A stretch of DNA of 64,000 bases from Candidatus Bathyarchaeota archaeon (lineage in GTDB: Archaea; Thermoproteota; Bathyarchaeia; Bathyarchaeales; Bathycorpusculaceae), in NCBI GenBank assembly GCA_963739305.1, contig CAVTZU010000010.1:1-64000 (forward strand), given 5' to 3'. A program made the translations under genes and the position numbers. This document shows positions 1 to 25,230 of this stretch, piece after piece. The notes beneath the pieces are model-generated. The model was not told the origin of the DNA and made no database searches. It was given only the letters and a program-made list of their open reading frames with translations. Numbering within the stretch: the first letter of the stretch is position 1; each line of letters begins with the position of its first letter.

Positions 1-443
1 ACCACATATCCGAAATTGGAGATCCGACCAACATTTCAGACCATCTGGCCATACTTCGCTCGAGAACCTGTCAACCTCCTAGCACGGCATTCTGCCTCTC
101 GCGACGCGTGCGCCTAGAAGAAATTTGTCGCTGAACTCGAGCTTTTCGCGGTTGTAATGTTCAGAATGTGGCATTCTTAGATTTTTCGCATGCCGACGAG
201 CGCAAGTATCGCGCGCGCTCTTCACTCCTCAAGACTCTCTTGTGAGAGCATTAGATAATTCTTGCATTCTTGACCAAACCAAAACCGCTAGTCAACGATC
301 CTAGACATCACTGTCAAGAAGACAGGAATTAAATTAAACGCCATCCTTAGTTGTACGTAGAGAAAGCGCAATGATCATTTGTTCAAACAGAAAGTGCTCT
401 CAGGAATTACTCTAACGGAGCGTGATTCAATTTGGAGATAAGC

Positions 444-1490
444 ATGAACAGAATGGCGCAGGCATTCAGGATCACGAGCAGCTTTGTTAGATACAAAATA
501 AGATGCCCCAGACCTTTTTTTGTCAGTTATCAAATAACGTTTCGATGCAACCGAAGATGTATGTTCTGTAACGCGTGGAAGCTAAAGACTGACAACGAGT
601 TAGACACAAGGCAAGCAAAGAAGGTTGTGGGTGAACTGGCAGACTCCGGCGTCAGCGTCGTTGGCATCACAGGCGGCGAACCACTAGTCAGGAAAGATCT
701 GGAAGAAATAGCCACATATGCAAAACGGAGAGGAATGGTTGTCGGACTCAATACAAACGGAACGCTGCTTACTCCAAAAAGGGCAAAATCAATATCAACC
801 GCATTTGACGCAGTCTTTGTCTCCTTGGACGGATTTGAAAAAACGCATGACCAGATACGAGGAGAAAAGGGAACGTTCAGGGAAGCCTTTCTTGGACTCA
901 AAAACCTCATTGCTGTAAAGCACGATTGCACCGTTGGCGTCAATTTTGTTCTAAACAACCTGAACTACAAAGAATTCATTCCATTCTGCAAATGGATCAA
1001 AAACCTAGGCGTGCTAGTCACGTTCTTCCCAGTCGGTGGAGAAGACAACTTCATTTCAGACTACTCAGTTCCCCGCAACGAGGTAGATGGTTTTGTCTGT
1101 AATGTTTTGAGAGAAAAGGCAACAAATCCTTTTATTGGACCTTCAGAAAGAACCATCGAACTCGTGCCAAAGTTTGTGAAGGGTGAGATGCCGCATATCT
1201 GCGATGCAGGGCACCTGTACTTAGGTGTCTCTCCCGTTGGCGAACTGCGTATCTGTCCGATTGGACCTGACTCTCCCAATTGGAAAGTGGGCTCGCTTTC
1301 GACTTCTTCCATGAAAGAACTCCTAAGTTCAGATCGTTTCCGTCAAGTTTTGGAAGACAGAAAACATTGTACGTCCTGTCTCGCGGGTTGTACGACGCCC
1401 TATTCACTATTGTTCAGAGGTTCTGTTAGGAATTTGACGAAAGAAGCACTAGATTATTTCAAATCCTTCCTTAACGTTGTTCAGAACTAG
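444..1490 (+). CDS. Radical SAM protein with C-terminal SPASM/twitch-like domain
   Basis: CNRRCMFC (CxxxCxxC), ITGGEPL, LNTNG, C-terminal Cys cluster (CDAG...C...CTSCLAGC); ATG at 444 follows GGAG (ORF track starts at 432). Confidence 0.9.
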   Translation: MNRMAQAFRITSSFVRYKIRCPRPFFVSYQITFRCNRRCMFCNAWKLKTDNELDTRQAKKVVGELADSGVSVVGITGGEPLVRKDLEEIATYAKRRGMVVGLNTNGTLLTPKRAKSISTAFDAVFVSLDGFEKTHDQIRGEKGTFREAFLGLKNLIAVKHDCTVGVNFVLNNLNYKEFIPFCKWIKNLGVLVTFFPVGGEDNFISDYSVPRNEVDGFVCNVLREKATNPFIGPSERTIELVPKFVKGEMPHICDAGHLYLGVSPVGELRICPIGPDSPNWKVGSLSTSSMKELLSSDRFRQVLEDRKHCTSCLAGCTTPYSLLFRGSVRNLTKEALDYFKSFLNVVQN

Positions 1491-1492
1491 TT

Positions 1493-1598
1493 TGGTGCCG
1501 AGGGCCGGGTTTGAACCGGCGACGACTCGGTCTTCAGCTTCGCCCTCACGCTTAATTAGCAATGGGTCGAGCGCTCTCCCAGGCTGAGCTACCTCGGC
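1493..1598 (-). tRNA. tRNA-Phe(GAA) with 29-nt non-canonical intron at 30/31 (intron 1539-1567), CCA encoded
   Basis: Minus strand GCCGAGGTAGCTCAGCCTGGGAGAGCGCTCG[ACCCATTGCTAATTAAGCGTGAGGGCGAA]GCTGAAGACCGAG...GGTTCAAACCCGGCCCTCGGCACCA; bulge-helix-bulge (CG|A bulge, CGCT/GGCG helix, AA|G bulge). Confidence 0.95.
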
Positions 1599-1719
1599 AC
1601 TTTTGGATGACCTCGGATAGTGTTGACCATCCAGAGGTTTATTTGCGTTTTCTCAGGAATATTAGGTTATCTTCTGACAGACGTATTCAAAACCGACTTC
1701 AAGCATTGATTTGACTTCA

Positions 1720-2496
1720 TCAGGCTTCTCTGCAACTTTGAAGGTGAACTCGTGGTGCGCGCGCTTTCCCTCTGCAAGCTTCATATCGTGAATCATACAA
1801 GTGCCCCAATATGTAAAAACAAAAGTAGTTTCTCCACCACACTTTGTAGCTTTTCAACAATCCCCATTGTCTAAGTCTTCGACTGGACTCAAAAACGGGA
1901 GTTGACAAGACCTTTGTCCTTCCATAAGACGATGCTTTCAGCAACATATCCGTTATCTCAAGCATGTGAAGTTTTTCGTTAAACCCTTTTATCTTGCAAA
2001 AGATGTCTTTCCTTATTGCAGTCATATCTCCTCTATTGTAGAACTTCAATAGAAGACTCAGATGAGCGCATAACCTGACGTACAATCCATCTAACACATA
2101 GAACAAGACGGTGGAAAACGTCTTCCGTCGAGATGAAGGTAATACTCGCGAGATTACTGAAACCACTGCAGTGTCTCTGAACTCTTTAGCGACGTCAATG
2201 AGCGAAGACTTCTGCAAAGTTGTGTCTGCATCCATGAAGATCAAGATGCTGCCTCTGGCAAGACTTGCTCCGAAATTTCTTGCCTTAGAAACACCACTGG
2301 GAAGAAATGTGTACACGTTTTTGACGTGTTTCCTTGCCTCTCTGAACGTGTCGTCGGTACTACTGTCTACAACGATTATCTCTGTACTGAACCCGTGTCT
2401 TCCAACTTCGTCGCTTGCTTCAAGTATCTTCCGCAAGGTTCTTCCTACATATTTCCTCTCGTTCCTAGTGGCCAAAATGACCGAAAAGTCTACCAT
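1720..2496 (-). CDS. Glycosyltransferase family 2
   Basis: FSVILATRNE, IIVVDSS, GVSKARNFG, FMDAD motifs. Confidence 0.9.
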   Translation of the reverse strand: MVDFSVILATRNERKYVGRTLRKILEASDEVGRHGFSTEIIVVDSSTDDTFREARKHVKNVYTFLPSGVSKARNFGASLARGSILIFMDADTTLQKSSLIDVAKEFRDTAVVSVISRVLPSSRRKTFSTVLFYVLDGLYVRLCAHLSLLLKFYNRGDMTAIRKDIFCKIKGFNEKLHMLEITDMLLKASSYGRTKVLSTPVFESSRRLRQWGLLKSYKVWWRNYFCFYILGHLYDSRYEACRGKARAPRVHLQSCREA

Positions 2497-2622: not shown

Positions 2623-2694
2623 TACTGGTTCGGTTGTGGTTGAAATGGCAAGGATTAATTACAAGTGGTTTACAGAAGGGTTTCAGGACTTGTA

Positions 2695-3831
2695 ATGGTA
2701 GATTCTGCGGAACTGTTTGAGGCTATCTCGCATCCTGTGCGAATCAAGATTCTCAAAATCCTTGAAAGGCAACCTACCAGCTTTGCTTCCCTGAAGAGAC
2801 AGCTGGAGATTGACAGCAGCGGGAACATCGACTATCATCTCAAGAAACTCGGAGAACTCGTGGCAGTCAGAGGGGATGGGTTGTATGGGTTGACAGACGC
2901 AGGGAAAGAAGCTCTCCTTTCCATTGACGCAGTAGAAACATGGGCGGAGATGGAGAGGCGCAAGGTCAAGATGTTCAGGAAAATGCCCAAGGAGGCGTTT
3001 GTCCTGGGGTTGCTGGAAATCTGCAGCTCGACAGCTTTAATCTTCTGGTTCTTCTTGCCGCAAATGCAGTTGCCTTTTACTAGCGACAGCTTATGGGGAT
3101 ATATCTTTTTTGGAACCCTGTTACTCACAGGCTTCCGTTCTGGCATTGGCATATTCCTCCGTTTGAGATGGAGTTGGACGCTGGTTCTGGCCAAATCAGC
3201 CCTGATCATGTCAATGAGTCTCTTTCTACTGGACTACATATGGAAACCAAGCGCAGTTACACAATCAGGCGATGCGGCGCTTTTGTACTTGGCGTTCGTT
3301 GCTCTAGAAATAGCTACAGTAATCCTGGCAATGACACGTCCCCTGAAGGATTACCTTGGAATAAGCAAGATCAAATTATCCTATCTTGGTGCCTTCGGTA
3401 GTCTACTGTGTATATCCAGCGGAATACTGCTAATTCTTCTTGAAAATGCAGTTCGCTTTCTTCTCCGTCCGAGCGCGCTACAACCACTACCCGACCAAGT
3501 TAGCACAGTTTTCGCCTCTATGTCCGACACATCGATCCTTTGCGGCTTACTCATAATGGTTGGAGGCGTTCTAGTTCTGCTGAGAAGCAGCATCCTGGGT
3601 CCCGCAATCAGCATAATCTTCGGGTTGTTCCCCACTCCACTTTTAGGAATCAAGTCCATCCCTTCCTGGCTTCCACAACAAACCACCTACCACGCTTTCG
3701 ATCTCATTTGGGGAATAGGCCAACCATCATCGTTATTCTTCCTGATCGCCGCAATAATCGACGCTCTACCAATAGTTGGAGGGCTACTTGTTCTCGCGCG
3801 CGCGCGTGCGAAGAATCCGAACATGATCTAG
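2695..3831 (+). CDS. ArsR-type winged HTH fused to multi-pass membrane domain
   Basis: N-term LFEAISHPVRIKIL...SSGNIDYHLKKL...YGLTDAG, then about 8 hydrophobic segments. Confidence 0.85.
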   Translation: MVDSAELFEAISHPVRIKILKILERQPTSFASLKRQLEIDSSGNIDYHLKKLGELVAVRGDGLYGLTDAGKEALLSIDAVETWAEMERRKVKMFRKMPKEAFVLGLLEICSSTALIFWFFLPQMQLPFTSDSLWGYIFFGTLLLTGFRSGIGIFLRLRWSWTLVLAKSALIMSMSLFLLDYIWKPSAVTQSGDAALLYLAFVALEIATVILAMTRPLKDYLGISKIKLSYLGAFGSLLCISSGILLILLENAVRFLLRPSALQPLPDQVSTVFASMSDTSILCGLLIMVGGVLVLLRSSILGPAISIIFGLFPTPLLGIKSIPSWLPQQTTYHAFDLIWGIGQPSSLFFLIAAIIDALPIVGGLLVLARARAKNPNMI

Positions 3832-3892
3832 CGTGCGCGAAAGGGAAATATTTGAATAGCGTCAGTGATTCTCTTTCAACTGGTGTCTGGAA

Positions 3893-4132
3893 TTGAGCGA
3901 GCTCAAAACATTAGTGGCGAAGATTGAGTCCGGTGTCCTGAATGTGCCAGAAGAGGTTAGAGAGATACTTGGTCATGACACGAAACTCATTGTTGGCACG
4001 GCCGCAGTCATCGCGTTTTCAGCAGCCACCTCTTACGCAGACGTACTGAGGAGTCTCGAACTAATACAAGATGACCTGCAGATTCGCATAGAAGATGAAA
4101 AGTCAGAAGGCATCAAAACCAGACGTGTCTAA
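3893..4132 (+). CDS. Small hypothetical protein, AbrB/SpoVT-like N-terminus
   Basis: KIESGVLNVPEEVREILG resembles a swapped-hairpin motif; AT-rich box upstream. Confidence 0.55.
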   Translation: MSELKTLVAKIESGVLNVPEEVREILGHDTKLIVGTAAVIAFSAATSYADVLRSLELIQDDLQIRIEDEKSEGIKTRRV

Positions 4133-4231
4133 GCGAGCGCGCACGACAAGCCCTCTGGACAGTTAAGAAACTGACTTAGAAACAACGTAAAGTACCGTAG
4201 GAGATACAAGTGGAAATGAAGAGCATTCGTT

Positions 4232-5038: not shown

Positions 5039-5134
5039 GGGCTCGTAGTCTAGTCGGTAGGACGTCGCCCTCACTCGGCGAATATGCTGGAGGATGCGGC
5101 GAAGATCCCCGGTTCGAGCCCGGGCGGGCCCACC
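5039..5134 (+). tRNA. tRNA-Val(CAC) with 21-nt intron (5075-5095, position 36/37 by BHB geometry)
   Basis: GGGCTCGTAGTCTAGTCGGTAGGACGTCGCCCTCAC[TCGGCGAATATGCTGGAGGAT]GCGGCGAAGATCCCCGGTTCGAGCCCGGGCGGGCCCACC; CCTC/GAGG helix with AC|T and AT|G bulges. Confidence 0.93.
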
Positions 5135-5460
5135 TTTCAAACAAAAAAAAGCATTAATGTAAATTGAGAGGAGAATGGCAGCGGGAGAAAGGAGATGGAC
5201 AAAAGCAGCTCATTCTCCTCTAAGCGCACGCGTACGCTCGTACGAGATATTTATGCAATAACTTGTTATTAAAGTTGACGTTAATCCCCGTCATCTCCAG
5301 GTATTCTTTGTATTCATTAAACGAACGCACAGAAAGTGATGTAAATGAAACTTTTCTCTGCATAACAAGAAGTGTTAGGAAGTTGAGTATTTGCGTTGAA
5401 CGCGTAGACAAAAAGGTTTATTACATATCAAGATTCAAGATACATGAAGCGGTGACAAGG

Positions 5461-5829
5461 GTGCAAATAAACATAGGCTCCTGGAAGCTCAACGAGTACG
5501 ACTCACACGGGCCAGAAACTGAAGATCCAACCTGTGGCGAATGCGGGAAAACATATCACAAACCGATCCTCGCAACCGTCGCAAGCTCTGGAAACGTGCA
5601 CACGTACCAAGCTTGTCCTCACTGCATGACCAAAGTTCATGCTGCAGACCCTCCGAAAAGCGAGGAGATCAAAGCCGCAATCCTCTCAAAACAGCCAGCC
5701 GAAAAAGCACTTCTGCTGGAAGGCAAATGCGGCCACTTCTTCGGGTACTTGAACAAACGCCCGAAAGGGACGTCGGTCCCCGAACGCTGCTTAACCTGCG
5801 AAAAAATGGTAGATTGCCTTTACGGATAG
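5461..5829 (+). CDS. Double zinc-finger small protein
   Basis: CGEC...CPHC plus CGHFFGYL...CLTC...C; BRE/TATA (aaaaaggtttatta ~5410-5423) and GGTGA before GTG 5461; ORF-track start 5263 looks over-extended. Confidence 0.75.
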   Translation: MQINIGSWKLNEYDSHGPETEDPTCGECGKTYHKPILATVASSGNVHTYQACPHCMTKVHAADPPKSEEIKAAILSKQPAEKALLLEGKCGHFFGYLNKRPKGTSVPERCLTCEKMVDCLYG

Positions 5830-6069
5830 TGAATTCCCCGAAAGCTTCCAGAGCCTACCACAAACAGAAAAATCGAAGCTTCCATAGAACAACCCTTTTG
5901 ACTCCAGTCTAAGCATCTTTTTGAGAAAGCGGAAAGAAATTGATTCTTTCAAAAGAAGTGGCAAATAGGAGTCTCCATTAGAGGACAACGATCAACCTCT
6001 GAAGCAAACAAATTCCCGGGATCAAAGTTTCGGGGTCTGTCCGTCATAAGTTCTTCATCTTTATAATCC

Positions 6070-6092
6070 GACTGGGACGGCGACATCATCCC
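6070..6092 (+). repeat. Integrase-associated direct repeat, copy 1 (left arm of a hairpin spanning 6066-6121)
   Basis: GACTGGGACGGCGACATCATCCC; further copies at 8645 and 12640. Confidence 0.85.
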
Positions 6093-6121
6093 CCGTAGAT
6101 AATACAGCATCCCAGTCAGAT

Positions 6122-6996
6122 ATGAACATTGTCAACACAATGCTCTGGATGAAGAAAAACGCATACGAGGAAACCACCATACGCAAAGTAGCCAAACTCC
6201 TCAGACACTTGCAACGAAACTGCAACACCAAAGACCCAGAAACCGTAAAACTCTATATCGCCAAAAAGACCACCAGCAACGGACACAAAGAAAACTTGGT
6301 AGAAGCCTACGCCATTCACCTGAGATCACAGAACTTAACATGGGAACAACCCTTCTACCAAAGATACGACAAGAAACGCAGACCACCCAAAGAAGAACTA
6401 ATCGACTTCTTAATCAACCACGCAAGACTGGAAATGGCACTGAAATTATCCATGACCAAAGACCTAGGCGAAAGACCCATAGAACTCACATGGCTAACAC
6501 TAAAAGACATAGACCTATCAACAGGCATAGTAAGCATCACAGGAGCAAAACACACCGTCGGAAGAGAAGGAAAACTCAAGACCAAGAACCCTAGATCTCT
6601 TAAGAATCTACATCAAAAAGAAGAAACTCAACCCAAACAGCCGACTCTTCAACATGAACTCAGACAGCCTATCCAACAATTACCGACACACACGAAACAG
6701 AATCGCCGAAGAATACGATATGCCCGAACTCAAACAAATCCAACTTTACGACTTCCGACGCTTCAAAGCATCCAAAGCCTACCACCTAACAAATAACTTA
6801 CTCTTGGTCAAACAACTCTTGGGACACAAAACACCCGAAACAAAACAGAACGATACATCAGTCTATTTGACGAAAAAAACATAACATGGATACCTGTGAT
6901 ATGCGAGAACCAAGCCGAAATCAAACAAGCAATCAAAGACGACTGCATCCTGTATGCCAAGCAAAAGGAATAACATACTTCAAAAAACCCGCGTAA
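6122..6996 (+). pseudogene. Tyrosine recombinase/site-specific integrase, interrupted by about 3 frameshifts (~6587, ~6843, ~6951)
   Basis: Joined frames give GERPIEL (R), GAKH (K), YDFRR (HxxR variant), LLGHK, TERYISL (Y), ending ITYFKKPA*; strongly A/C-rich strand. Confidence 0.88.
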
Positions 6997-7509
6997 TGAA
7001 CACCATCTTCTCTTCCCATACTCTTGGAACTATTCTCTCAAGCATGCGGAATTTGATTAAAAACCAAACGCGGATAGAAAATGCAAGCTTTACCAGACAC
7101 ACTCACCAGACGACCTACAATCCGCGTCGCACGTTACAGAACGATACGCCAAAAATTGATATCTCAAGACATAGCACAGCCATGGAAAGAACGAGATCCA
7201 AAGCTAGGAGTGAAAATCAAAAAATAACACTTTGAGGAAGTTATGAGCGAGCATTATCTAGATGTGAGAAAATGCGGATGATCGAGCGCGCCAAGTTGAA
7301 GAAGTAGCATAAGAATACTGGTGAAGCCCAAGCGCGCGCATAACCCAGCAGCCGCGTTGTACACGAGCCAAAGCTACTACAAGAAACAACTTTATCCATA
7401 GTTGATATCTCTTCTATCGAGCGCGCACGCTAAAGGATTGACGAAAAGAGAGAAAAAGCACTCTCAGTTCACGAAAGTCAGTTGTCGAGTGCATATCGTC
7501 TGTGTGGTT

Positions 7510-8184
7510 CTACCTTCCGATGTGACTTATCAGAATTATCGCGTCAAAGATGTCTACGACGCCGTCACCGTTGATGTCAGCGTAGGGGTTCCAATTTGGA
7601 GCGCTTTGAGTACTGCCAAAGGCTTTTGCCAGGATTAGTGCATCGTAAATGTCCACGACACTGTCTCCGTTCAAGTCGCCTATCAGTCTTATCTGAACAC
7701 TCCCGTCCTCACTGTTTGATTGCAGGGTTTGCCCTGAAGGGTCAGCAACTACAAGACTATCTATATGCAAAGAACTCTGACAGTATCTGTTGTACAACTT
7801 GAAAGTCAAATCTAGTATAGTAACTGGCGAGACAGTGCTCATGGGAATACCGAAGGTCACGTTAGTGCTCATGAAACCGTTTCCTGACTGGAAGTACGTA
7901 GGACTAGGCAAGTTTGCATCTGGCAGAAAAGATGCTCCTACTATTGCTATTTGTGTCCCGTTAAAAATTAGTGTCATCTGCACAGAACCGCAATTGCTTA
8001 CGTTTTGAATAGTTATGTTTATGTGAAATCTCATCCCTTGTGAAGGAGAATTGTTCACTGTGCTGGAGGGCTGGACACTTATCAGCGGTGTAAAGGTGAT
8101 AGCAGAGCTTCCATGAACCACCAAGACACTCAGTGCCGCAACAATGACGCAAGTCAACAAGACAGCTTTTTGAATTTTCCTCAT
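7510..8184 (-). CDS. Secreted protein with cohesin-like domain and C-terminal dockerin-like duplicated Ca-binding repeat
   Basis: Signal peptide; beta-rich middle; GDLNGDSVVDIYD...ADINGDGVVDIFD. Confidence 0.85.
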   Translation of the reverse strand: MRKIQKAVLLTCVIVAALSVLVVHGSSAITFTPLISVQPSSTVNNSPSQGMRFHINITIQNVSNCGSVQMTLIFNGTQIAIVGASFLPDANLPSPTYFQSGNGFMSTNVTFGIPMSTVSPVTILDLTFKLYNRYCQSSLHIDSLVVADPSGQTLQSNSEDGSVQIRLIGDLNGDSVVDIYDALILAKAFGSTQSAPNWNPYADINGDGVVDIFDAIILISHIGR

Positions 8185-15165: not shown

Positions 15166-15201
15166 GTAGCAACGAGCGCCAAAATAAACCTTTCCAGACA
15201 T

Positions 15202-15882: not shown

Positions 15883-15927
15883 CTCAGAGTGCCTTCAGAA
15901 TCCGAAGAGCTGAAGGAATACGGCAGG

Positions 15928-17304: not shown

Positions 17305-17611
17305 AGGGATCGTGCGTTTTGTTATATTTCGTCGCGGTCAACGCATATAAATTGTGAGTAAGTCTGTTCACACTAGGTGTAAGCTGCTCCATGATCTATT
17401 GGGGTGAAAAAACATCATTAATGTTTCTTTAGAATAATTGAAAACTCGATCGATAGGCGCTTATGTCGATTTGCGACCCGTTCGCGAAAATCTTTTCAAT
17501 TAAACTGTTCACTTATCTTAAATATTGATCACTGATTCATAATGGTTAATTATATTCTGAGCCAACGAAGGAAAACAACAATGATTCGTTGAATAAGGAT
17601 GTGTAAAGAAA

Positions 17612-17860
17612 ATGATGAAAAAAACAGAAGCCAAAAAGGCCATGGCATACGTCATCGATTTAACGCAGATTGAGGGTGACGGAGCTTTTTCCTGTCCCAA
17701 ATGCGGAACGGTCATTTCCCCCGATGATGAATCAAACAGCAACTACGAGATCGTGAACACTAAAGTGAAGAATGATCAACTCGCAGAACTGCTTGTCATG
17801 TGCAAGAAGTGCCAGACCACGATTAAACTAACTGGATTCATGCCTCAACCTGAAGCTTAG
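17612..17860 (+). CDS. Small zinc-ribbon protein
   Basis: IDLTQIEGDGAFSCPKCG..ISPDD...CKKC; start may be the ATG at 17642. Confidence 0.8.
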   Translation: MMKKTEAKKAMAYVIDLTQIEGDGAFSCPKCGTVISPDDESNSNYEIVNTKVKNDQLAELLVMCKKCQTTIKLTGFMPQPEA

Positions 17861-17881
17861 AAACGGTTTTTGACAAGCAAC

Positions 17882-18106
17882 CTACTTTTCTCGTTCAAGC
17901 CTTCTGCTTATCGACACGAAAACAACCCACAACGCGACGCTATAGAGAACTCCGTTGAAAAACGCGCTTACGTACGTGGTGTACTTGACTGCAGTTCCGC
18001 CCATCAATGCACACAGTATGTTTCCGGGGAACATTGGTGATGGTATCAACAGGGAGGCACCTGTGAACAAGACGAAAAAGACTAACAGGATTATTGTTCC
18101 CTTCAT
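17882..18106 (-). CDS. Small two-TM membrane protein
   Basis: Two hydrophobic helices around PSPMFPG. Confidence 0.7.
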   Translation of the reverse strand: MKGTIILLVFFVLFTGASLLIPSPMFPGNILCALMGGTAVKYTTYVSAFFNGVLYSVALWVVFVSISRRLEREK

Positions 18107-18235
18107 TATATTAGCCTCTTAGCTGCACTGGCTTGTTTTCATTGGTTCTCGTCGCACAAGTGTCTAGCATCGCAAGATTTAATAAACGTTCTTGTACGGC
18201 TGTCCAACCCAAATACACTTGGCAACCCGAGGTTC

Positions 18236-18247
18236 TAGCGCGCGCTA
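18236..18247. repeat. Perfect palindrome TAGCGCGCGCTA, copy A
   Basis: Identical copy at 18651-18662. Confidence 0.85.
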
Positions 18248-18290
18248 ATTTTTTATCCTGACGAATCCTTATCGTTAACGGGGTTGCGTC

Positions 18291-18653
18291 TTGTCTGGGG
18301 ATGCATGGGTGGCTTATTTGCATGAGCTGATCGAGCAGGCAGAGATGAATAAGAAAGCCGGAATCCTGGTGTTCGCTTGTGGAGTCGTTGCTATTGTGCT
18401 GAGTCTCATTTTGGTGGAAACAAGCGTATCGATTTTTGCGTTCTATTCGTTCGGTGTTGGGTTTCCTCTGTTTGTCTTGGGAATCGCAGAAACTGTATAC
18501 TGGACTCGGAAGTACAATCGTTTCGTGGAACAGTTGAAAGGACTTCCATCCAGCAAGATCTCTGCGTGCCCCAGATGTGGCAAACAGATACTGCAGGGAG
18601 ACTTCATGTTTTGCCCTTTTTGCGGTTCTCCTCTAGCTCCTCTTACACCATAG
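18291..18653 (+). CDS. Two-TM membrane protein with C-terminal zinc ribbon
   Basis: Two TM helices, CPRCG...FCPFCG. Confidence 0.8.
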   Translation: MSGDAWVAYLHELIEQAEMNKKAGILVFACGVVAIVLSLILVETSVSIFAFYSFGVGFPLFVLGIAETVYWTRKYNRFVEQLKGLPSSKISACPRCGKQILQGDFMFCPFCGSPLAPLTP

Positions 18654-18662
18654 CGCGCGCTA
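18651..18662. repeat. Perfect palindrome TAGCGCGCGCTA, copy B; supplies the TAG stop of both convergent genes
   Basis: TAG at 18651-18653 (+) and CTA at 18660-18662 (- strand TAG). Confidence 0.85.
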
Positions 18663-19784
18663 GAGACCGAGAAAACTCAGCAGCTGAAGCACCCAGGACC
18701 ACACGAAAGAGCACAGGATGAAAATCACAACTATACCGATCGCCAAAAGTTTCCGCCCAGTTGAAAGTTTCGAAACGTCATCGAGAGGTCCGGGATGCCT
18801 GAACATCGACATGAAAACCACCAGGAAAGCCATAGGCCAGAAGCCTGAAATAATCAGCAACAAGACCGACAAGAAAGCCAAAACCATCCTTGCTCTATCC
18901 CCAAAAAGCGACCTGGAAATGTGACCCCCGTCAAGCATAGAAGCAGGCAATATATTGAGCATCGTGACGATCATCCCGACCCAGCCTGCAAAAGCAACAG
19001 GGTGCAGTAGAATATAGTGGTCGGCGGGAACCCTTAGCAGAAAGATGGCCAGTAGATCAAAGATAAGTGGCGACGGAAGACCAGTAATATTCGACGTCAT
19101 TGGGTAAGTCGGAGAGAACATTAGGCCGACTACCGTCGCTATTAACGCAAGTATGAATCCTACTATTGGACCGCTTGAGCCGATGTCAAACAGCGAATCC
19201 TTGTTAGGCGGAAGAGACTTCTGCATAATCACCGCGCCAAACGTTCCGAACCCCAACAAGTCACCTATCGGCGGTGGGCCTGGAATGAAGTAAGGCGGCG
19301 TCGCATCGATGCCGTTTCTGTTAGCAGTAAGCTTGTGACCCATCTCGTGAGCCCCCAGCACAGTCATTATCGCAACCGTAAACGCTGCAGCTCCGATGAA
19401 CGGACTGGCCATCAACCCCCTGTCAACAAAATCTGCAGAAAGTACGTAGCCGGTGAGAAAAGTTGTTCCGATTGTTGCGAAAAACAACGCCCAATTCACC
19501 AATATATTGCTCGGCTTCACCGGAGGCTTGGGGACAACTCTCAAGACGACTCGATGATCCACCCTGCGCAAGAGAGCGATCAGATTCGTTTCTTCCAATT
19601 CCTTCAATAACCTCAGAAAAGCCTGTTTCGTTTCCTGCGGCTGCCTCAAATAAAACGTTGGAATTCCTTGCTCCAACGCAGCTTCTTCTGTCTGAAACTG
19701 GGAAGACACGATTTGAGAAATCCTCACGAATTCGGCTTCCTGAAAGAAAGGCGCTTGAACTCTTTCGTCCGATGTTTCTGCCAT
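18660..19784 (-). CDS. Site-2 protease (M50 family)
   Basis: HEMGH, PYFIP, GTFGAVI, SGP, NILPASMLDGGH. Confidence 0.95.
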   Translation of the reverse strand: MAETSDERVQAPFFQEAEFVRISQIVSSQFQTEEAALEQGIPTFYLRQPQETKQAFLRLLKELEETNLIALLRRVDHRVVLRVVPKPPVKPSNILVNWALFFATIGTTFLTGYVLSADFVDRGLMASPFIGAAAFTVAIMTVLGAHEMGHKLTANRNGIDATPPYFIPGPPPIGDLLGFGTFGAVIMQKSLPPNKDSLFDIGSSGPIVGFILALIATVVGLMFSPTYPMTSNITGLPSPLIFDLLAIFLLRVPADHYILLHPVAFAGWVGMIVTMLNILPASMLDGGHISRSLFGDRARMVLAFLSVLLLIISGFWPMAFLVVFMSMFRHPGPLDDVSKLSTGRKLLAIGIVVIFILCSFVWSWVLQLLSFLGL

Positions 19785-19999
19785 TGTGCTTTTGGCCCCA
19801 GTTTTGATGCGTTAGCAGAGTGTTCAGCCAATAGAAAAGGCTATTGGAACTGTCTTCGATCCGTGAAAGGCCGCCCGCCGACAACAGTCTTCTGCGTGTG
19901 GCGAATTCTGACATCTTCAACTGACTGCGTGGAAATCATCGAAAGAATTATAAAAAGAGGACAAGCTTACTCATTACTGATCTTGGCAGTTGAAAACGG

Positions 20000-21148
20000 A
20001 TGAATTTCACGCTTGCATGCGACATCATGATGGACCTAGAAGGGTCCATTCGTCCGGCAATTTACCTGGCTGACGAGCTGAATGCGAGAGGACACGACGT
20101 TTCCATAATATCTCCTATGATGTCAAATGATGTCGAAGAACAGCTCAAGACAGCGGGCATGACACCCATCAACTTGCACGCGAAGCTAGCTGCCAAGAGC
20201 TTCGGCCTTTCTATGTTATGGTTTGAAACCTGGTCACGTGAAGCTTTCCTAAGACTGAATTCCAGACACGCAGTCAACGCTTCTTCACTGACCTTGAATT
20301 TCTCACAAGTGATCGCGATTCCTTGCGCAGTATGGTACTTGCAAGGGCCGCCATCAATAGCGTTGGAAGACATGAATAGAGAACTCTCACCTAAGTTCAA
20401 AATTGCTTACAAGGTCTTGAAGCCGTTCATAGAATACGCTGACGGTAAACTTGTCAGACGGATGGGTAACGTCTCATTATCGGTCATTGCCAACTCAAAA
20501 TTCTGCGCGTCGATGTACGCTGGCTTCGGCATCAGAGTCTCTGACGTTGTTTATCCTCCGATAAACTGCCAGCAGTTTTGTCCAGCAACCTCAAAACCAT
20601 CTGCGGACTACGTATTCACGTATTTTGGAAAAGAAACAGAATTCTCGGTCGTAAAACACATAGCAGATAGTGGTATCAAGATCAAAGCTTTCGGTTCGAA
20701 GACACCTTACATCGAGAAAAATCTAATGAGAAACCCCAACATCGAATTTCTGGGAAGAGTTACCACGAGTGAGCTGGTAGATCTCTATTCGAACGCACTT
20801 TTCACACTGTTCCCATTCACCCACGAGCCTTTTGGTTATATACCTTTGGAAAGCATGGCTTGTGGAACGCCAGTTCTCACTTACGGTGTCCAAGGTCCGA
20901 GCGAATGCGTAATTGACGGATATACAGGCTGGCTCGCACGCTCGGAAAAAGAAATTGAAAACAAGGCCACTACGTACTGGAAGGATGGATTCAATTCTTC
21001 GATGCGGCGTAGCTGCGTGAGAGAAGCAACAAAGTACGATCGTAGATATTATACGGCCAAGTGGTTGAAGATTCTCGAAGAACCAAGTAATGACCCGCAA
21101 CTCGTGTGTCCAAGCGCAAACGTTCAAACTGTAGCAGTATCCGAATAG
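20000..21148 (+). CDS. Glycosyltransferase family 4
   Basis: IANSKF, VYPPI, HEPFGYIPLESMACGTPV. Confidence 0.92.
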   Translation: MNFTLACDIMMDLEGSIRPAIYLADELNARGHDVSIISPMMSNDVEEQLKTAGMTPINLHAKLAAKSFGLSMLWFETWSREAFLRLNSRHAVNASSLTLNFSQVIAIPCAVWYLQGPPSIALEDMNRELSPKFKIAYKVLKPFIEYADGKLVRRMGNVSLSVIANSKFCASMYAGFGIRVSDVVYPPINCQQFCPATSKPSADYVFTYFGKETEFSVVKHIADSGIKIKAFGSKTPYIEKNLMRNPNIEFLGRVTTSELVDLYSNALFTLFPFTHEPFGYIPLESMACGTPVLTYGVQGPSECVIDGYTGWLARSEKEIENKATTYWKDGFNSSMRRSCVREATKYDRRYYTAKWLKILEEPSNDPQLVCPSANVQTVAVSE

Positions 21149-21194
21149 AATATTAGCATATTATTCCGCATTGAATATTCTAGGAAGATGAATT

Positions 21195-23133
21195 ATGACG
21201 AGCCGTGGACCCAAAGTGCGTCTCAAGGAATTCCTTCACAATCGGGGTTCACGCTTGAGAACACTGACGAAGTACGAGAGAATATTGATCGTTGCGATAC
21301 TTGTTTACATTGTCGTTCTTTCAACGATAACGTCTATCAAGTTCTACTGTTTCAGAACCCAAACTTTTGACTTTGGAATCTTCGTCCAGATCTCATGGCA
21401 GACGTTGAACGGAAACTTCATGTTTACTCAACCCAGAGCAGGGATCAACCAGCCCACCAGTTTTCTGGGCGTACACGTGTCACCTTTCCTCTTAATAGTG
21501 ATTTTCCTGTATGCACTTGTCAGAAGCCCCTACACGTTGCTCGTGATTCAGACAGCTGCTTTTGGATTCACTGCGCTCTTCATCTACAAACTCGGAAAAA
21601 AGATTATCGGAAAGGAGAAGATCGCGTTGCTTTTTGCAGTCGGTTTTCTACTCTACCCGGGGACTCTGTGGCCAAATTGGTATGACTTTCATCTCGAGGC
21701 TTTCGTACCTCTTTTTTCAGCAATGATTTTCTATTACTACTTTTCCAACAACAAAGTCGGAGTAGTTTTATCGATGATTCTATTGCTGTCAACCTTCGAA
21801 AGAGCCGTGTTCATAGTGGCTCTCTTTCTTTTCTACATTGCCGCAAGGGAAATCTACTTGAAGAAGAAAAAGGAAGACACGAAGTTCTTTTCCAGATGGA
21901 TGATTCTGACGCTGCTGATCGTTGGTGTCATCTGTGCAGCTTATTTCCTATGGTCCGAAAATCTGATGAACAGTGTTTGGCCTGAAAGAGGACTTTTCCA
22001 GCCACTGAATATCTTCGGTCAGGTGACTTACAATGATATGCTTCTCAAAATAGCGTACGTAGCTCTACTAACGGCGCCCCTAGCCTTCTTGTCTTTTGAT
22101 TCACCGTTGGAACTCTTGCCTGCGGTTCCATATCTGTTTTTGGCGATGGTTTCAGACTATCAGCCCTATTTCACCATTCCATGGCAGTATCCAGCGCTAA
22201 TCTCCGTTCCATTCTTTGTTTCGGCGATTTTCGGATGGAAACATCAAGAAAGAAAGGGTCTTTGGAAGAAAATGGTCGCGCTTATGCTTGTATGCGTTGT
22301 TCTGTTTAGTCCTGGATCTCCATTCATGTCGCTTTTCAGTTCGAACTGGACTGTTCCAGTACCGACGTTGGAATATCAACTTAGACATCAGGCTCTTGCA
22401 AGCGTCGCTGGAACTGCTAGTGTGTTGGCTCAGGAGAACATCTTTCCCAACATAGCTGAACGAAAAGTGGCTTATACTCTTTGGCCAAACAATAGTGCAC
22501 CGCCTGACTATATCATTGTAGATGTTTTGGACACACTTTTCTACCGCGAGCCTGGAGGAAATCCAACGCAAGAAGCGTTGCTGACGTTCACACAACAGAA
22601 CGCGTACGGCATAGTAGAAATCGTGAACGGCTTCATCATATTGAAGAAAGACTACAATGGACCGAGAGAAGTCTTGATGCCTCTGCAAATATCTCTTGAA
22701 CCTACACAGTTAAGAAAGCCAGTAGTGTCTTTCGAAGACACTTTCACCGAGACCCACTTCCACATATCAGACTCGGTGGGAATCGAAGGAGATCACATCG
22801 TCATAGGCAAAAACACAACTGGAGACGCTTGGTGGGGTCCGTACATCACTGTTCCACCTGGAAAGTACCGGGTTGAAGTGGACTATACGATAAACGACAA
22901 TGTTTCAGGACCATTTCTTGATTTGACCGCTTGCTACCGTAGTTCTCCTCAAAGCGTAACGGTCTTCGCCAAGAAAACGGTTCTGGGAAGTGAGATCGCT
23001 GCTGGTCAGAAGGGCGTTGCGGTTATGGATTTTGAGCTCGAAGAACTGGGTGCCATCACTCGAAATTGTGGGCACGAGTTACGGGAAAGCAGACGTCAGT
23101 GTCTACTCAGTGAAGTTTGAGGAAATCGATTGA
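21195..23133 (+). CDS. DUF2079-like multi-pass membrane protein (putative GT-C); probable frameshift ~23041 near the C-terminus
   Basis: FDFGIFVQ, GVHVSP, YDFH, WQY; ORF track ends 23120, but the +1 frame continues KNWVPSLEIVG...FEEID* to 23133, overlapping the next TTG. Confidence 0.8.
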
Positions 23134-23996
23134 GAGTTCTGGTTTTTATTCCGAGTTACAATGACACTGAGACGGCGCTTAATATTGCTAAACAATTCCT
23201 TGATGAAGAGGGTGTGAGTGGAGTTCTATTAGTTGACGATAGCGACGATTCGAAATGTGTTGAAATCGCTCGGCAGATCAGGAACGAGAATATAGAAGTC
23301 ATTTCCAGAGTCCGAGCTGGAAAATGGTCCGCTTGGAAACTCGCCTTGACACGTGCAAAAGAGTATGACGGACTGATAGAAGTCGACTCAGACGTCGAAA
23401 TCAGAGATCCTGCTCTTGTCATTTCAAGCCTAAAAAGCCACGATTTAGTGACTGCGTATCAGGAAATCGTGTTGCCCGATAAAGGTCTAGGCAAAGCGGT
23501 GGGAAAAGCCTACCAGAAAATGCATCAAGATCTCAAAGCAATGAGAAGATTCAACATGGGAGGTCAAGTCATCGGTTTGTCGAACAAAGCTGTGTCAACA
23601 CTGCTGCACTACAAGTTTTTCGAAGAACCTGTGTTGGCGGACGATCACGTTATTGGCCTGGCTGGCCGGGTCTTGGGACTGAGATGTACGACGATAGATT
23701 GCGGACTAGAGATAGGTATACCTTCGACAATTAGTGATTGGATTAGCTACAGATCGAGGCATCGCGGGGCGATCAATTGGGCGGAAAGATACGTGGCATC
23801 AAAAACTGGTAAAGCAGAGGAGACTGCTGACGCTTCCCGAGCGGACTATGCGTTTGCTCTGCGATATTTCATTAAGGACTTCTTGAAGTCTCTCAACGTC
23901 GGCGGCCTACCGCTACTCGCTCTCTTCGCCATAGCCTCTATTCTGCCTCTTGAAAACCAAACGGAATGGTCCCGGCTCAAAAGCGAAAAAACCTAG
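23130..23996 (+). CDS. Glycosyltransferase family 2
   Basis: VFIPSYND, LLVDDSDD, GKWSAW, VDSD, ADD, RSRH. Confidence 0.85.
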   Translation: MRVLVFIPSYNDTETALNIAKQFLDEEGVSGVLLVDDSDDSKCVEIARQIRNENIEVISRVRAGKWSAWKLALTRAKEYDGLIEVDSDVEIRDPALVISSLKSHDLVTAYQEIVLPDKGLGKAVGKAYQKMHQDLKAMRRFNMGGQVIGLSNKAVSTLLHYKFFEEPVLADDHVIGLAGRVLGLRCTTIDCGLEIGIPSTISDWISYRSRHRGAINWAERYVASKTGKAEETADASRADYAFALRYFIKDFLKSLNVGGLPLLALFAIASILPLENQTEWSRLKSEKT

Positions 23997-24093
23997 TTTG
24001 AACCACGCAATTGGAAAGAGAATATTAACTTCCACCAACTATCTGATGGACTCAGTTTGGGAATGCTTGACTGGGATCGTGTGGTGGATCGGT

Positions 24094-25188
24094 TTGAAAA
24101 TCACTTTTATAACAGATCCTCTCGTGACCACCGCAGGGGCAGTCAGGCCGAGTTTACTGCTCGCAAAAGAATTCGCTAAGAATGGGTATGAAGTGACGTT
24201 TGCCGCGCCCCAAATAGATCAGGAAATTGAAAAGATACTGCGGAAACAGGGATTTGGTCGCAGACGTGTTGGCTCAGACTTCTCCTTTATTCCGTCCATT
24301 CCGACTTTTGATGCATGGGCACGACAATTGATACGACAGAAGACCATCAAGAGAATAAGTGACGCAGAGTTGGTGGTCAACACCTCTTCATGCATCATCA
24401 CACCTGCAAACGCATACTATGCTCAAGGCCCCATGACGCAAGCCCTCAGAGACATTTCACGCAACATGCCAGCGCATTACCGGTGTGTCTACAAGCTATT
24501 TGCTCGCCCTTTCAATGTGCTGGAAAATCGACTTGTCAAAAAGTTCAAAAACTCTTCCAGAGTCTTCGTAGCCAATTCTGCATTCTGCGCATCGATGTAT
24601 GAAAATTTAGACGTGTCTGTCGACATCGTTATTTATCCTCCTCTCGACTGTACATTGTTCAGACCATCAACCGAGAAGCCTTCGGCGGATTATGTTCTGA
24701 CCCATCTTGGGATTTACGGCAAAGAAGGAGATTTCCGAATCGTCAAAGCCATTGCTGACGCTGGTGTTCAGGTGAAAGTGTTTGGAAGAACAGCCTTCAC
24801 CCCCGGTTTCTTGAGAAACCACAAGAATCTGGATTTTCTTGGAAGGGTTTCTGATCGTGAACTCGTGGAATTGTACTCAAATGCTTTGTACACTTTGTTC
24901 GCTTTCAGCCATGAACCATTCGGATACATTCCGATAGAGAGCAACGCATGCGGGACACCAGTTGTCACTTATGACAAGCAAGGTCCCTGTGAAACTGTAG
25001 TCAACATGAAAACGGGATGGCAGGAACACACAGATCAGCAACTGGTGCGCCGAGCTCTGAATCTGTGGAAGAACAAGTATCCATCGCGTTTGCGAACTGA
25101 ATGCAGGAACAGAGCACTGACGTTTGACGCGTCAAAAATAGCGAAGAAGTGGTTCACGTTGCTAAACGAGCAAAAGATAAGCGAATGA
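24094..25188 (+). CDS. Glycosyltransferase family 4 (paralog of 20000..21148)
   Basis: VANSAFCASMY, HEPFGYIPIESNACGTPV; likely TTG start at 24094 (ORF track 23950). Confidence 0.9.
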   Translation: MKITFITDPLVTTAGAVRPSLLLAKEFAKNGYEVTFAAPQIDQEIEKILRKQGFGRRRVGSDFSFIPSIPTFDAWARQLIRQKTIKRISDAELVVNTSSCIITPANAYYAQGPMTQALRDISRNMPAHYRCVYKLFARPFNVLENRLVKKFKNSSRVFVANSAFCASMYENLDVSVDIVIYPPLDCTLFRPSTEKPSADYVLTHLGIYGKEGDFRIVKAIADAGVQVKVFGRTAFTPGFLRNHKNLDFLGRVSDRELVELYSNALYTLFAFSHEPFGYIPIESNACGTPVVTYDKQGPCETVVNMKTGWQEHTDQQLVRRALNLWKNKYPSRLRTECRNRALTFDASKIAKKWFTLLNEQKISE

Positions 25189-25218
25189 AGCAAAAGTGGC
25201 TAAACGGAGCTCCTTGAA

Positions 25219-25230
25219 TCGCGCGCGCGA
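25219..25230. repeat. Perfect palindrome TCGCGCGCGCGA between convergent genes
   Basis: Seen directly; member of the dispersed (CG)n family. Confidence 0.7.

Follow-up and report, generated by a model that had tools for sequence, protein, structure and literature searches.

The window, a stretch of 64,000 nucleotides from a soil/peat Bathyarchaeia MAG (assembly G000), contains exactly eight maximal alternating C/G runs of at least 8 nt, and these are the same eight that an earlier sequence-only reading of this DNA had reported as exceeding chance. There are nine exact GCGCGCGC matches at these eight loci. When the window was shuffled 100 times with dinucleotide counts preserved, the mean was 0.58, the largest count was 4 and 0/100 reached 9. 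The runs, their degenerate versions and the associated features are as follows, with a strand given where one is assigned.

106-113: one-mismatch copy (a transition)
210-218: motif copy CGCGCGCGC, upstream of the radical-SAM gene at 432-1490
1757-1764: motif copy within the final ~15 codons of the GT2 ORF at 1720-2496 (minus strand)
3795-3806: 12-nt run, the longest of the window, in the final ~12 codons of the HTH ORF at 2665-3831
3831-3838: one-mismatch copy that begins on the final base of the TAG stop of ORF 2665-3831
4133-4144: degenerate copy immediately 3' of the stop of ORF 3893-4132
5224-5231: one-mismatch copy downstream of the tRNA at 5039-5132
7284-7291: one-mismatch copy
7332-7339: motif copy in a convergent spacer; both neighboring genes are without an ortholog in G001, a closed genome of the same genus
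7419-7430: degenerate copy
12631-12640: motif copy bordering a conserved gene block (12.7-19.8 kb)
18238-18245: motif copy TAGCGCGCGCTA, one end of a cassette
18246-18652, plus strand: body of the inserted cassette, 0.4 kb with one gene, flanked by two motif copies
18342-18653, plus strand: cassette gene, coding for a small membrane protein that bears a zinc ribbon at its C terminus
18653-18660: motif copy at the other cassette end, abutting the TAG stop of the M50 peptidase gene at 18660-19784 (minus strand)
25220-25229: motif copy in a convergent spacer among glycosyltransferase-cluster genes
29166-29173: one-mismatch copy upstream of the gene at 29246-32959
43268-64000: motif-free contrast block, collinear with G001 genes #1919 down to #1903

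All seven of the degenerate copies that had been listed are present as one-mismatch or degenerate versions of the motif. When one mismatch is allowed the window has 36 matches relative to 15.1 expected, a count reached by 1/100 shuffles. Taken alone, the degenerate copies in the window thus exceed chance only weakly. Two of the eight runs (1757-1764 and 3795-3806) are located within the final ~12-15 codons of called ORFs and the rest are intergenic. Overlap with stop codons, as had been claimed, is observed for two TAG stops. Specifically, ORF 2665-3831 ends with TAG followed by CGTGCGC, and the motif at 18653 begins with the G of the TAG stop of the cassette ORF, called at 18291-18653. There is no exact run past position 25229, in agreement with the reported lack of copies from ~30 kb to the window end. 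If the loci were evenly spread, the probability of finding 8/8 within the first 25.2 kb would be 0.0006; this crowding occurs because the region from 43 to 64 kb is a block that is collinear with the congener. Overall the window is typical of its assembly, with 8 loci as compared with 9.7 per 64 kb assembly-wide.

These runs are not random. The whole G000 assembly contains 351 alternating C/G runs of at least 8 nt (~14-fold over expectation), a count in which MAG redundancy includes 24 runs twice (327 left); the C2/C3 and C7/C31 segment pairs are likewise counted twice. An excess over a Markov background is likewise evident genome-wide, with 359 GCGCGCGC sites relative to ~25 expected under models of order 0-3. 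The unit is a phased 8-mer, GCGCGCGC, with the consensus TA-GCGCGCGC-TA, where maximal runs of 8 nt start with G in 177 cases and with C in 24. Run lengths are distributed non-monotonically (6 nt, 398; 7 nt, 150; 8 nt, ~201-202; 9 nt, 96; 10 nt, 48; at least 11 nt, 5) with a peak at exactly 8 nt and a ceiling of ~10 nt, and therefore the motif is not a microsatellite. Position frequencies at 355 sites show that conservation extends no more than 2 nt to either side of the 8-nt core, and 23 array copies in G001 are also without an extended consensus. A-core-T is the commonest flank arrangement followed by TA-core-TA; TA is the most frequent flank on both sides, preceding the core in ~45% of copies and bracketing it in 29/177 exact 8-nt runs, while position -3 is G in just 22%. 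One-mismatch variants are enriched 2-fold and central transition variants occur 38 times relative to 7.5 expected.

Within the class Bathyarchaeia the motif is patchy, occurring in some families at ~1 copy per 5-7 kb and absent from others, independently of GC content. For example, G001 contains 455 runs and G099, a genome from a different, distant family with 39% GC, has 84 runs in 400 kb (1 per 4.8 kb). The motif is seen in independent assemblies, including two single-contig genomes, and a flipped variant, TCGCGCGCGA, is found in another family. Some longer runs of up to 14 nt, which look microsatellite-like, occur in the genome G018. A search of open-access papers and bioRxiv returned nothing relevant, which does not contradict the claim that the family is undescribed.

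We located the runs relative to genes called with our own crude caller (80% coding), by which 311/351 runs in G000 are intergenic and 40/351 lie in called genes, as compared with intergenic fractions of ~20% for random positions and ~28% for 3,946 other G/C-only 8-mers. The same is true in G001 (421/455 intergenic, 34/455 in called genes) and in G099 (79/84 intergenic). The sequence-only reading had described the runs as mostly intergenic or in last codons, and the intergenic placement holds beyond the window. Motif density is 1.01 per kb in convergent spacers, 0.65 in divergent spacers and 0.59 in tandem spacers, with 83/140 tandem-spacer copies being closer to the upstream stop, a mild 3'-end bias. 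The most frequent position is overlapping or directly after a stop codon, and the motif is kept out of the 40 nt that precede start codons, and its distance to starts is not fixed. In a few places the motif abuts a TAAAGTTTTATCC promoter-like element. Single-copy spacers dominate (194/237 motif-bearing spacers). No T-run was found 3' of the motif (T frequency 0.25-0.34 at +10 to +27), and the density noted above for divergent spacers, where no gene has its 3' end, also goes against the earlier suggestion that the motif is a terminator.

The motif is depleted between conserved neighbors. Using reciprocal best hits as orthologs between G000 and G001, spacers of conserved adjacency carry the motif in 7/743 (G000) and 16/743 (G001) cases versus 232/1426 and 310/1502 of the other spacers (Fisher 6e-36 and 8e-40), a comparison in which the conserved-adjacent spacers are partly operon-internal and for which length strata and a divergent-pair test control in part. 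Specifically, among spacers of at least 100 nt the conserved and other counts are 7/190 versus 201/883 (G000) and 15/201 versus 285/944 (G001), and where divergent genes are 100-300 nt apart the counts become 0/53 versus 24/142 (p=0.0004). Spacers at rearrangements and accessory genes carry the motif in 14-24% of cases, and in an array at 845-870 kb of G001 the motif lies between nearly all genes, which alternate in strand. The proposed association with accessory-gene boundaries and synteny breaks is thus upheld genome-wide against a closed congener, as well as at the single junctions described below. There is no positional conservation, with the motif present in both species at 2/21 orthologous spacers that have it in either. 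Two motif gains at conserved spacers are point substitutions and not insertions.

The motif also coincides with the ends of recently shared segments. G000 and G001 have 128 common segments at 80% identity or more, relative to a genome background of ~70-75%, and 107/128 of these are in non-syntenic contexts. Segment ends fall within 12 nt of a motif in 34/256 and 41/256 cases (13-16%), as compared with 2.0% and 2.8% of random intergenic positions and 3.6% and 2.5% of accessory-gene 3' ends; they fall 0-2 nt from a motif in 25/256 and 35/256 cases, and ~85% of the ends have no motif. Examples include a 518-nt segment with 98% identity between the species that is motif-bounded in both, and a 1.4-kb segment with 96% identity whose end is the motif in both.

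Ends of insertions and deletions show the same coincidence at the base level. The window cassette is missing from the same spacer in eight related loci (L210, L001, L002, L003, L199, L200, L201 and L203), of which L210 has 90% nucleotide identity to the window at this locus. The empty site in L210 reads ..ctcTAGaac.. and is without the motif, whereas the filled site has a motif at both insert ends and reads TAG-CGCGCGCTA ... TAGCGCGCGC-TAG, with perfect 9-10 bp inverted ends and a duplicated TA/CTAG. Two relatives (L002 and L007) have a motif ~35 nt past the end of this same 12.7-19.8 kb block. Comparing C2 and C3 reveals a 4.2-kb insert between two copies where the empty site keeps one copy, and in C13 versus C17 two copies bracket different cassettes. 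The TA duplication is not seen at the C2/C3 and C15 junctions, and no single simple reaction fits both the window/L210 pair, with its motif-free empty site, and the C2/C3 pair, with its one-motif empty site. Small sequence families, among them a ~100-nt unit with a copy at each end, have the motif as their precise start in 3-4 places. Members of the zinc-ribbon gene family are found beside motifs in both G000 and G001, but in conserved spacers that are not the same in the two genomes. In several members a BRE/TATA-like box follows an exact or degenerate motif copy at a distance of 8-35 nt. Cassette cargo is heterogeneous and protein-coding, without a transposase and without internal sequence common to the family. 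Several close-relative indels use other joints, namely tRNA att sites, a 9-nt direct repeat and a second repeat family.

We also searched for an enzyme that might act at the motif. Y1_Tnp/RAYT (PF01797) was found in 0/21 genomes, with 6/14 reference genomes positive as a control, and the IS630 and Harbinger transposase domains DDE_3 and DDE_Tnp_4 were each found in 0/21. DDE_Tnp_1 genes are present and no motif was found at their ends. A C5 methylase (PF00145) had no match in G000 or G001 and was present in 2/21 genomes. Tyrosine recombinase genes (PF00589) lie in or near motif-dense arrays. The array-adjacent recombinase was rejected as the motif enzyme since it is missing in 4/5 distant motif-rich genomes and has a 45% identity copy in a motif-poor genome, and thus does not co-vary with the motif. 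The presence of Ku does not track the motif either.

Overall, we give about even chances to the reading that the runs are one dispersed palindrome that marks joints of cassette insertion, deletion, replacement and inter-genome exchange, be it as site or as scar. We infer that the motif causes joining as its site, rather than being the scar that joining produces, and that some factor acts in trans. The recombination or insertion site favored by the sequence-only reading fits the junction data, although the motif could be a joining product rather than a substrate. Copies are identical on both strands, and we therefore propose that any two copies could be joined, either by a site-specific enzyme or by short-homology end-joining following a break at the motif. 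An incoming cassette would bring or gain one copy per end, loss between two copies would leave a solo copy, and solo copies would decay via transitions, persisting only where they are harmless, outside of coding sequence and the ~40 nt upstream of starts. A wider version, which we put forward tentatively, is that several Bathyarchaeia lineages may undergo genome-wide cassette exchange in which the only cis requirement is an 8-12 bp TA-GCGCGCGC-TA (flipped to TCGCGCGCGA in another family) and the enzyme falls outside of recognised transposase and integrase families, in effect a distributed integron with a minimal site.

Several other explanations were weighed against this reading of the motif as a joint mark. 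In one of them, the cassettes would be non-autonomous and transposon-like, with the motif as their terminal inverted repeat, and an unrecognised transposase would cut and paste them in trans with TA/CTAG duplication; solo copies would be excision footprints or collapsed ends. The inverted ends and duplication in the window/L210 comparison, TA as the commonest flank on both sides, the small families that start at the motif and the zinc-ribbon genes in differing spacers all argue for this. We nevertheless regard it as rather unlikely given that the genomes yielded no transposase of a TA- or CTAG-targeting family (0/21 for DDE_3 and for DDE_Tnp_4), that DDE_Tnp_1 ends are motif-free, that the cargo is heterogeneous and transposase-free, that single-copy spacers prevail and that the C2/C3 and C15 junctions are without a TA duplication. 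A transposase would, moreover, normally need a much longer binding site than a conserved end of 8-12 bp. A perfect palindrome of 12 bp has the form typical of sites bound by HTH dimers, and the motif may instead be a putative protein-binding site (operator, silencer or insulator) of accessory or mobilome-derived genes that moves along with modules, as the copies upstream of BRE/TATA-like boxes, those abutting TAAAGTTTTATCC and the avoidance of the 40 nt ahead of starts would suggest. This is doubtful, as the motif is densest in convergent spacers, which have no promoters, is most common at or after stops with no fixed distance to starts, and has many transition-decayed copies. Homology that stops 0-2 nt from the motif is likewise unexpected for a passive passenger.

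Alternating CG is the classic Z-DNA former, and both the mild 3'-end bias and the density in convergent spacers would fit a putative Z-DNA-forming supercoil sink or a termination/3'-end signal between transcription units. We consider this improbable since there is no T-tract, the motif is frequent in divergent spacers, and the conserved divergent spacers of 100-300 nt (none with a motif) and conserved spacers of at least 100 nt (7/190) rarely carry it though these also part transcription units. Length is moreover held at 8-10 nt, and longer CG runs flip to Z-DNA more easily. Finally, the two copies that arose or decayed through simple substitutions in conserved spacers and the microsatellite-like runs of G018 are what a by-product of composition, of slippage (a CG microsatellite) or of assembly would produce. 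That origin is highly improbable and is already contradicted by the Markov enrichment, the non-monotonic lengths, the G-start phase, the recurrence at 39% GC and the independent, in two cases single-contig, assemblies.

Bathyarchaeia are among the most abundant uncultured archaea of sediments, peat and soil, and to our knowledge the mechanisms of gene gain and shuffling in them are largely unknown. The distribution of the motif at points of gene gain, loss and swapping suggests an undescribed gene-shuffling route, and a junction mark of this kind would allow gene gain, loss and exchange between species to be counted directly in metagenomes. If cassette exchange does occur, then any gene between two copies could move within and between species. 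Should the site be sufficient for joining, few known natural recombination sites would be as small, and it might serve as a tool in archaeal genetics; should the motif be a scar, it would point to unusual repair or joining chemistry. The motif is family-restricted and GC-independent, and any trans-acting factor is therefore searchable by phylogenetic profiling.

Among known systems, HIP1 (GCGATCGC) of cyanobacteria is spread over coding and non-coding DNA, overlaps the methylated CGATCG and is linked to a cytosine-C5 methyltransferase. Like HIP1, the motif is an 8-bp GC-rich perfect palindrome that is lineage-restricted and many-fold over Markov expectation, whereas, unlike HIP1 as we understand it, the motif is 89-93% intergenic, is tied to gene-content boundaries and is not accompanied by a C5 methylase gene in G000 or G001. 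It differs from a (CG)n microsatellite by having no smooth length decay and a strong G-start phase, and from an intrinsic or oligo-T terminator by having no downstream T-run and not being confined to gene 3' ends. Intergenic copies are shared with MITEs (Stowaway/Tc1-mariner/IS630-type, with TA target duplication), and MITE-like short perfect inverted ends with a TA/CTAG duplication occur in one clean insertion and are not seen at the C2/C3 or C15 junctions. The varied protein-coding cargo, the lack of family-wide internal sequence, the predominance of solo copies and the absence of a matching DDE_3 or DDE_Tnp_4 transposase from 21 genomes are unlike MITEs. Integron attC sites are long, structured sites that fold as single strands and that IntI recombines at attI; integrons of this kind include archaeal ones (PMC9668308). 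As with integron cassettes, single genes with accessory cargo are separated by a recurring palindromic site in arrays. In contrast to attC, conservation stops at +-2 nt with no attC-like structure, as judged from position conservation. Cassettes also point both ways rather than being co-oriented, copies are scattered chromosome-wide, and the motif and the nearby tyrosine recombinase do not co-vary. Bacterial REPs are imperfect stem-loops of 20-40 bp that carry a GTAG or CGTC tag and in most cases come with a RAYT gene (PMC3733652). Here the REP-like character that had been proposed holds for the distribution, as the motif, like REP/REPIN elements (RAYT, Y1 HUH), is a high-copy, extragenic, lineage-restricted GC-rich palindrome that is frequent near gene 3' ends, is tied to genome plasticity and exceeds the >100 extragenic copies per genome used for REP/REPIN (351/327 in G000, 455 in G001). 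It does not hold for the structure, in that conservation spans only 8-12 bp with no loop and no 20-40 nt stem-loop, nor for the conserved GTAG/CGTC tag, the RAYT gene (0/21 genomes) or the host, which is archaeal. The motif thus resembles a REP in its distribution but is not a REP.

The window has exactly eight alternating C/G runs that are maximal and at least 8 nt long (210-218, 1757-1764, 3795-3806, 7332-7339, 12631-12640, 18238-18245, 18653-18660 and 25220-25229), as the sequence-only reading had described, and none follows 25229, in line with its remark that the runs cease by ~30 kb. The excess over chance that it had estimated also holds, with nine exact copies of the core GCGCGCGC at these eight loci versus 0.58 expected from dinucleotide-preserving shuffles (n=100), none of which reached nine. 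Sequence checks showed that the stop-codon overlaps it had pointed out are real. Its degenerate copies do exist as one-mismatch versions, but as a class they exceed chance only weakly here (36 versus 15.1 expected, with 1 of 100 shuffles reaching 36). All window motifs lie inside the variable first 30 kb, and the 43-64 kb portion is motif-free and collinear with G001, a closed genome from the same genus. An Rfam scan of the window returned nothing at the motifs, its sole matches being the following, which indicate an archaeal source:

1496-1598 (-), intron-containing tRNA gene
5039-5132 (+), intron-containing tRNA gene
15105-15150 (-), eL15 ribosomal-protein leader

The window (contig C10, 1-64000) is typical of its source assembly (G000; 2.32 Mb, 36 contigs, 47% GC), as the whole assembly likewise carries 9.7 runs of at least 8 nt per 64 kb, 351 in total. 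The genome-wide count against a Markov background that had been proposed gave 359 sites of GCGCGCGC versus ~25 expected under orders 0-3. Around 85 kb of contig ends nearly duplicate other contigs at 95-99% identity, which indicates mixed strains in the bin (listed contamination, 7.8%), and 327 runs remain when these ends are dropped. Maximal runs number 398 at 6 nt, 150 at 7 nt, 201 at 8 nt, 96 at 9 nt, 48 at 10 nt and 5 at 11 nt or more, a length distribution that does not fit a microsatellite. Phase is also strongly biased, with 177 of the 8-nt runs starting with G versus 24 with C. In about half of the copies an A precedes and a T follows the core, with T and A next outward, giving TA-GCGCGCGC-TA, a palindrome of 12 nt, as the complete consensus; no conservation was found beyond it in position frequencies from G000 or in 23 array copies from G001. 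One-mismatch variants in intergenic DNA reach twice expectation, and central transition variants are in excess (38 versus 7.5 expected), indicating that copies decay. All-against-all BLAST of the 200-nt flanks on either side yielded mostly contig redundancy and small sub-families, with no common element, and a longer shared repeat around the motif was rejected. A conserved unit of ~100 nt between two motif copies was seen in 3-4 places (C10:98279-98392, C18:139686, C23:118906 and C35:39244 of G000), perhaps a miniature element or the gene for a small RNA.

With respect to genes, 311 of the 351 runs in G000 are intergenic according to a home-made, crude gene set (2,205 genes, 80% coding), compared with ~20% of random positions and ~28% of 3,946 other G/C-only 8-mers. 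Motif density per kb of spacer is 1.01 between convergent, 0.65 between divergent and 0.59 between tandem genes. Measured by distance to stop codons, another check that had been suggested, copies are densest within the first 10 nt after the stop, and they keep out of the 40 nt that precede start codons. Among single offsets, the one seen most often has the G of a TAG stop belonging to the motif as well (G000, 10 of 351 runs; G001, 13 of 455).

We compared G000 with G001 through 1,368 reciprocal best hits (home-made orthology, median 74% identity); this is the one pair compared in depth, and relatives are non-independent samples. The suspected association with synteny breakpoints in relatives is borne out, with the motif enriched at breaks and accessory genes and depleted between conserved neighbors.

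Table. Motif occurrence by spacer class and at the ends of shared segments (G000; G001)
Spacers whose orthologs are adjacent in the other genome: 7/743; 16/743
Rearrangement breaks, core/accessory boundaries and accessory/accessory pairs: 14-21%; 19-24%
Conserved adjacency, spacer of at least 100 nt: 7/190; 15/201
Other spacers of at least 100 nt: 201/883; 285/944
Shared-segment ends (256 per genome) within 12 nt of a motif: 34 (25 at 0-2 nt); 41 (35 at 0-2 nt)
Control, random intergenic positions within 12 nt: 2.0%; 2.8%
Control, accessory-gene 3' ends within 12 nt: 3.6%; 2.5%
Control, gene 5' ends within 12 nt: 1% or less in both genomes

Expressed as density, conserved versus other spacers contain 0.17 versus 0.76 motifs per kb in G000 and 0.25 versus 1.01 in G001, and the contrast persists inside spacer-length strata. 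Among divergent pairs with 100-300-nt spacers, the motif is present in 0 of 53 conserved versus 24 of 142 other spacers (p=0.0004); divergent pairs cannot be operon-internal. Where an orthologous spacer has a motif in either species (n=21), it is present in both in two cases, and of the two spacers it tends to be the longer that has the motif. For most spacers, the divergence between G000 and G001 (74% protein identity) is too great for an alignment to place junctions.

Nucleotide divergence between G000 and G001 is ~25-30%, yet they have in common 128 segments, each of at least 150 nt, with 80-98% identity, 107 of which are in non-syntenic context. The ends of these segments lie at the motif far more often than the control positions do (Table), and at least one end is at a motif in 53 of the 128 segments overall and in 31 of the 51 with at least 88% identity, a few segments being counted twice through redundancy in the assembly (C2/C3, C7/C31). 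Specifically, a 518-nt segment that is 98% identical, and whose cargo is two tiny lysine-rich ORFs, has the motif at both sides in both genomes with unrelated flanks, and a 1.4-kb gene segment with 96% identity terminates at the motif in both. Motif-bounded cassettes with very small lysine/glutamate-rich ORFs (~30-45 aa) include C15:111401-111914 of G000, which equals 858684-859200 of G001, as well as C11:77597 and C13:75500 of G000; each of these ORFs has its own promoter-like box, and identity between the two species is 98%, compared with 74% for orthologs.

Single junctions could be read in several places. In the window, the relevant feature is:

18246-18652 (+), cassette with one small zinc-ribbon membrane gene, between motif copies at 18238-18245 and 18653-18660

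This insert, ~410 nt in all, is missing from the metagenome contig L210 (90% identity to the window), where the empty site reads ctcTAGaac without a motif, and from seven more related loci. When filled, the site becomes TAG-CGCGCGCTA...TAGCGCGCGC-TAG, in which the ends form an inverted pair of 9-10 bp and TA or CTAG is duplicated. Of the strain variants C2 and C3 inside the assembly, C2 contains cohesin/dockerin and solute-binding genes on 4.2 kb with a motif copy at each end, and C3 has one copy at this place. The window case and this one point to different junction geometries. C13 and C17 hold different cassettes between two copies, NosD-like genes versus a STAND ATPase. Homologues of the window's cassette gene occupy other conserved spacers of G001 and of G004, a further genome, with exact or degenerate motifs alongside, and in arrays at 845-870 kb of G001 and 110-116 kb of C15 of G000 almost all genes, which lie on both strands, are separated by the motif. 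When window positions 5300-25299 were compared with short Logan contigs from four DNA runs, no clear joint at the motif appeared among the matches listed; a contig from DNA run X1 covers 18154-18887 with the cassette present. A joint of 6065 to 12640 in read-derived contigs ends at the motif; it is weak and involves a high-depth repeat.

Nearby in the window are two further regions:

6122-6796 (+), ORF with no Pfam match, matching residues 7-139 of a tyrosine recombinase, its N-terminal half, at 32% identity
19850-42340, ~22 kb, glycosyltransferase/DUF2079/GH99 cluster and large surface proteins

At 5967-6633 the metagenome contig depth exceeds the neighboring level 3-10-fold, suggesting a mobile gene in multiple copies. 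The second region looks like a surface-glycan island; its bordering genes are neighbors in the related locus L200 and in G001 (#1926 and #1921-1922), and L210, partly comparable here, has ~4.4 kb of unmatched sequence.

Other indels have other joints, namely tRNA-att integrations, a 9-nt direct repeat and a second repeat built on TAAAGTTTTATCC. The latter is a dispersed, hairpin-like element (G-rich arm, core TAAAGTTTTATCC, C-rich arm) that resembles a BRE/TATA promoter, with 28 copies of the core, outside the window (e.g. C2:12130, C8:6361, C8:9055 and C30:1999 of G000), the nearest on the window's contig being at C10:113053/114227. Direct repeats of it border a 2.7-kb indel (C8 versus C30) and a 0.6-kb indel (C2 versus C3). 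In the related loci L002 (16635-20171) and L219 (15315-19823), inserts of 3.5-4.5 kb lie between repeated tRNA 3' ends, as classical integrase-type elements that occupy this neighborhood independently of the CG motif. In a third such locus, L003, a motif copy adjoins or lies inside that tRNA region.

Within the genus, each of 10 genomes has numerous copies (29-464). Counts are 5 and 14 in two other genera of the family and 0-6 in eight other families of the order, except for one with 53. G001 (2,346,764 bp) has 455 runs, 421 of them intergenic, with the same length cap and flanks as G000. Counts of the 10-mer AGCGCGCGCT in 121 genomes from across the class are high in several unrelated families (e.g. 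131, 119, 106 and 94 copies, with 0-5 copies of the reversed control in those genomes) and stand at 0-4 in most others. The reversed word TCGCGCGCGA is favored over AGCGCGCGCT in a few genomes of one other family (15:2 in G080, 13:2 in G094, 14:9 in G130 and, at most, 26:9 in G133), which may be an opposite-phase variant of the same system. G099, from a distant family, with 39% GC and proteins ~43% identical to those of G001, has 84 runs in its first 400 kb, 79 of them intergenic, and repeats the TA flanks and G-start phase. From the 121-genome counts and G099 we conclude that the motif family is patchy across the class, independent of base composition.

The reading we favor, to which we give an even chance, is that the runs are a short palindromic junction element, a site of cassette gain, loss, replacement and exchange. 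Cassettes would be gained, lost, replaced and exchanged at motif copies, and copies would afterwards decay neutrally where tolerated. As to the motif's part in joining, a dedicated enzyme might act on it, end-joining might use it as a short universal homology, it might be the inverted end of cassettes mobilized in trans, or joining itself might produce it. The third of these, taken as a transposon-end explanation in its own right, is unlikely; the window cassette has inverted ends and a duplicated TA or CTAG, the C2/C3 junction lacks such a duplication, and no mobility genes were found among motif-bounded cargo. A regulatory site that travels with mobile modules is a rather poorer candidate, set beside the dense placement just after stop codons.

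A structural or terminator role, the latter raised by the sequence-only reading, would suit the position after stops and the higher density in convergent spacers, but no T-run follows the motif and divergent spacers contain it at 0.65 per kb, and we regard such a role as very improbable. That the motif is a by-product is scarcely credible given the excess over Markov expectation, the length distribution and G-start phase, and the motif's presence at 39% GC. The candidate factors that were compared with the motif all proved negative or uncorrelated. Phage_integrase members in general are numerous in motif-poor genomes too, a tyrosine recombinase beside the arrays does not co-vary with the motif, and the DDE_Tnp_1 genes have no motif at their ends. 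A Ku homologue is encoded at C32:50991-51527 of G000 (PF02735, E=5e-43), and Ku, present in 17 of 121 sampled Bathyarchaeia genomes, has a distribution unrelated to the motif.

Literature searches covering open-access papers and bioRxiv turned up no description of such a motif family, and the main text of the archaeal integron paper (PMC9668308) does not contain the word Bathyarchae. The motif differs from REP/REPIN sequences in having no stem-loop and no GTAG tag, and a RAYT gene, searched with the Y1_Tnp profile, is present in 0 of 21 genomes. A standard MITE does not fit, as the copies share no body and neither DDE_3 nor DDE_Tnp_4 transposases were found in 21 genomes. Relative to HIP1-like elements, the distribution differs and no C5 methylase gene was found in G000 or G001. 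Finally, relative to attC sites, the motif is without their extended structure and bounds cassettes of mixed orientation.
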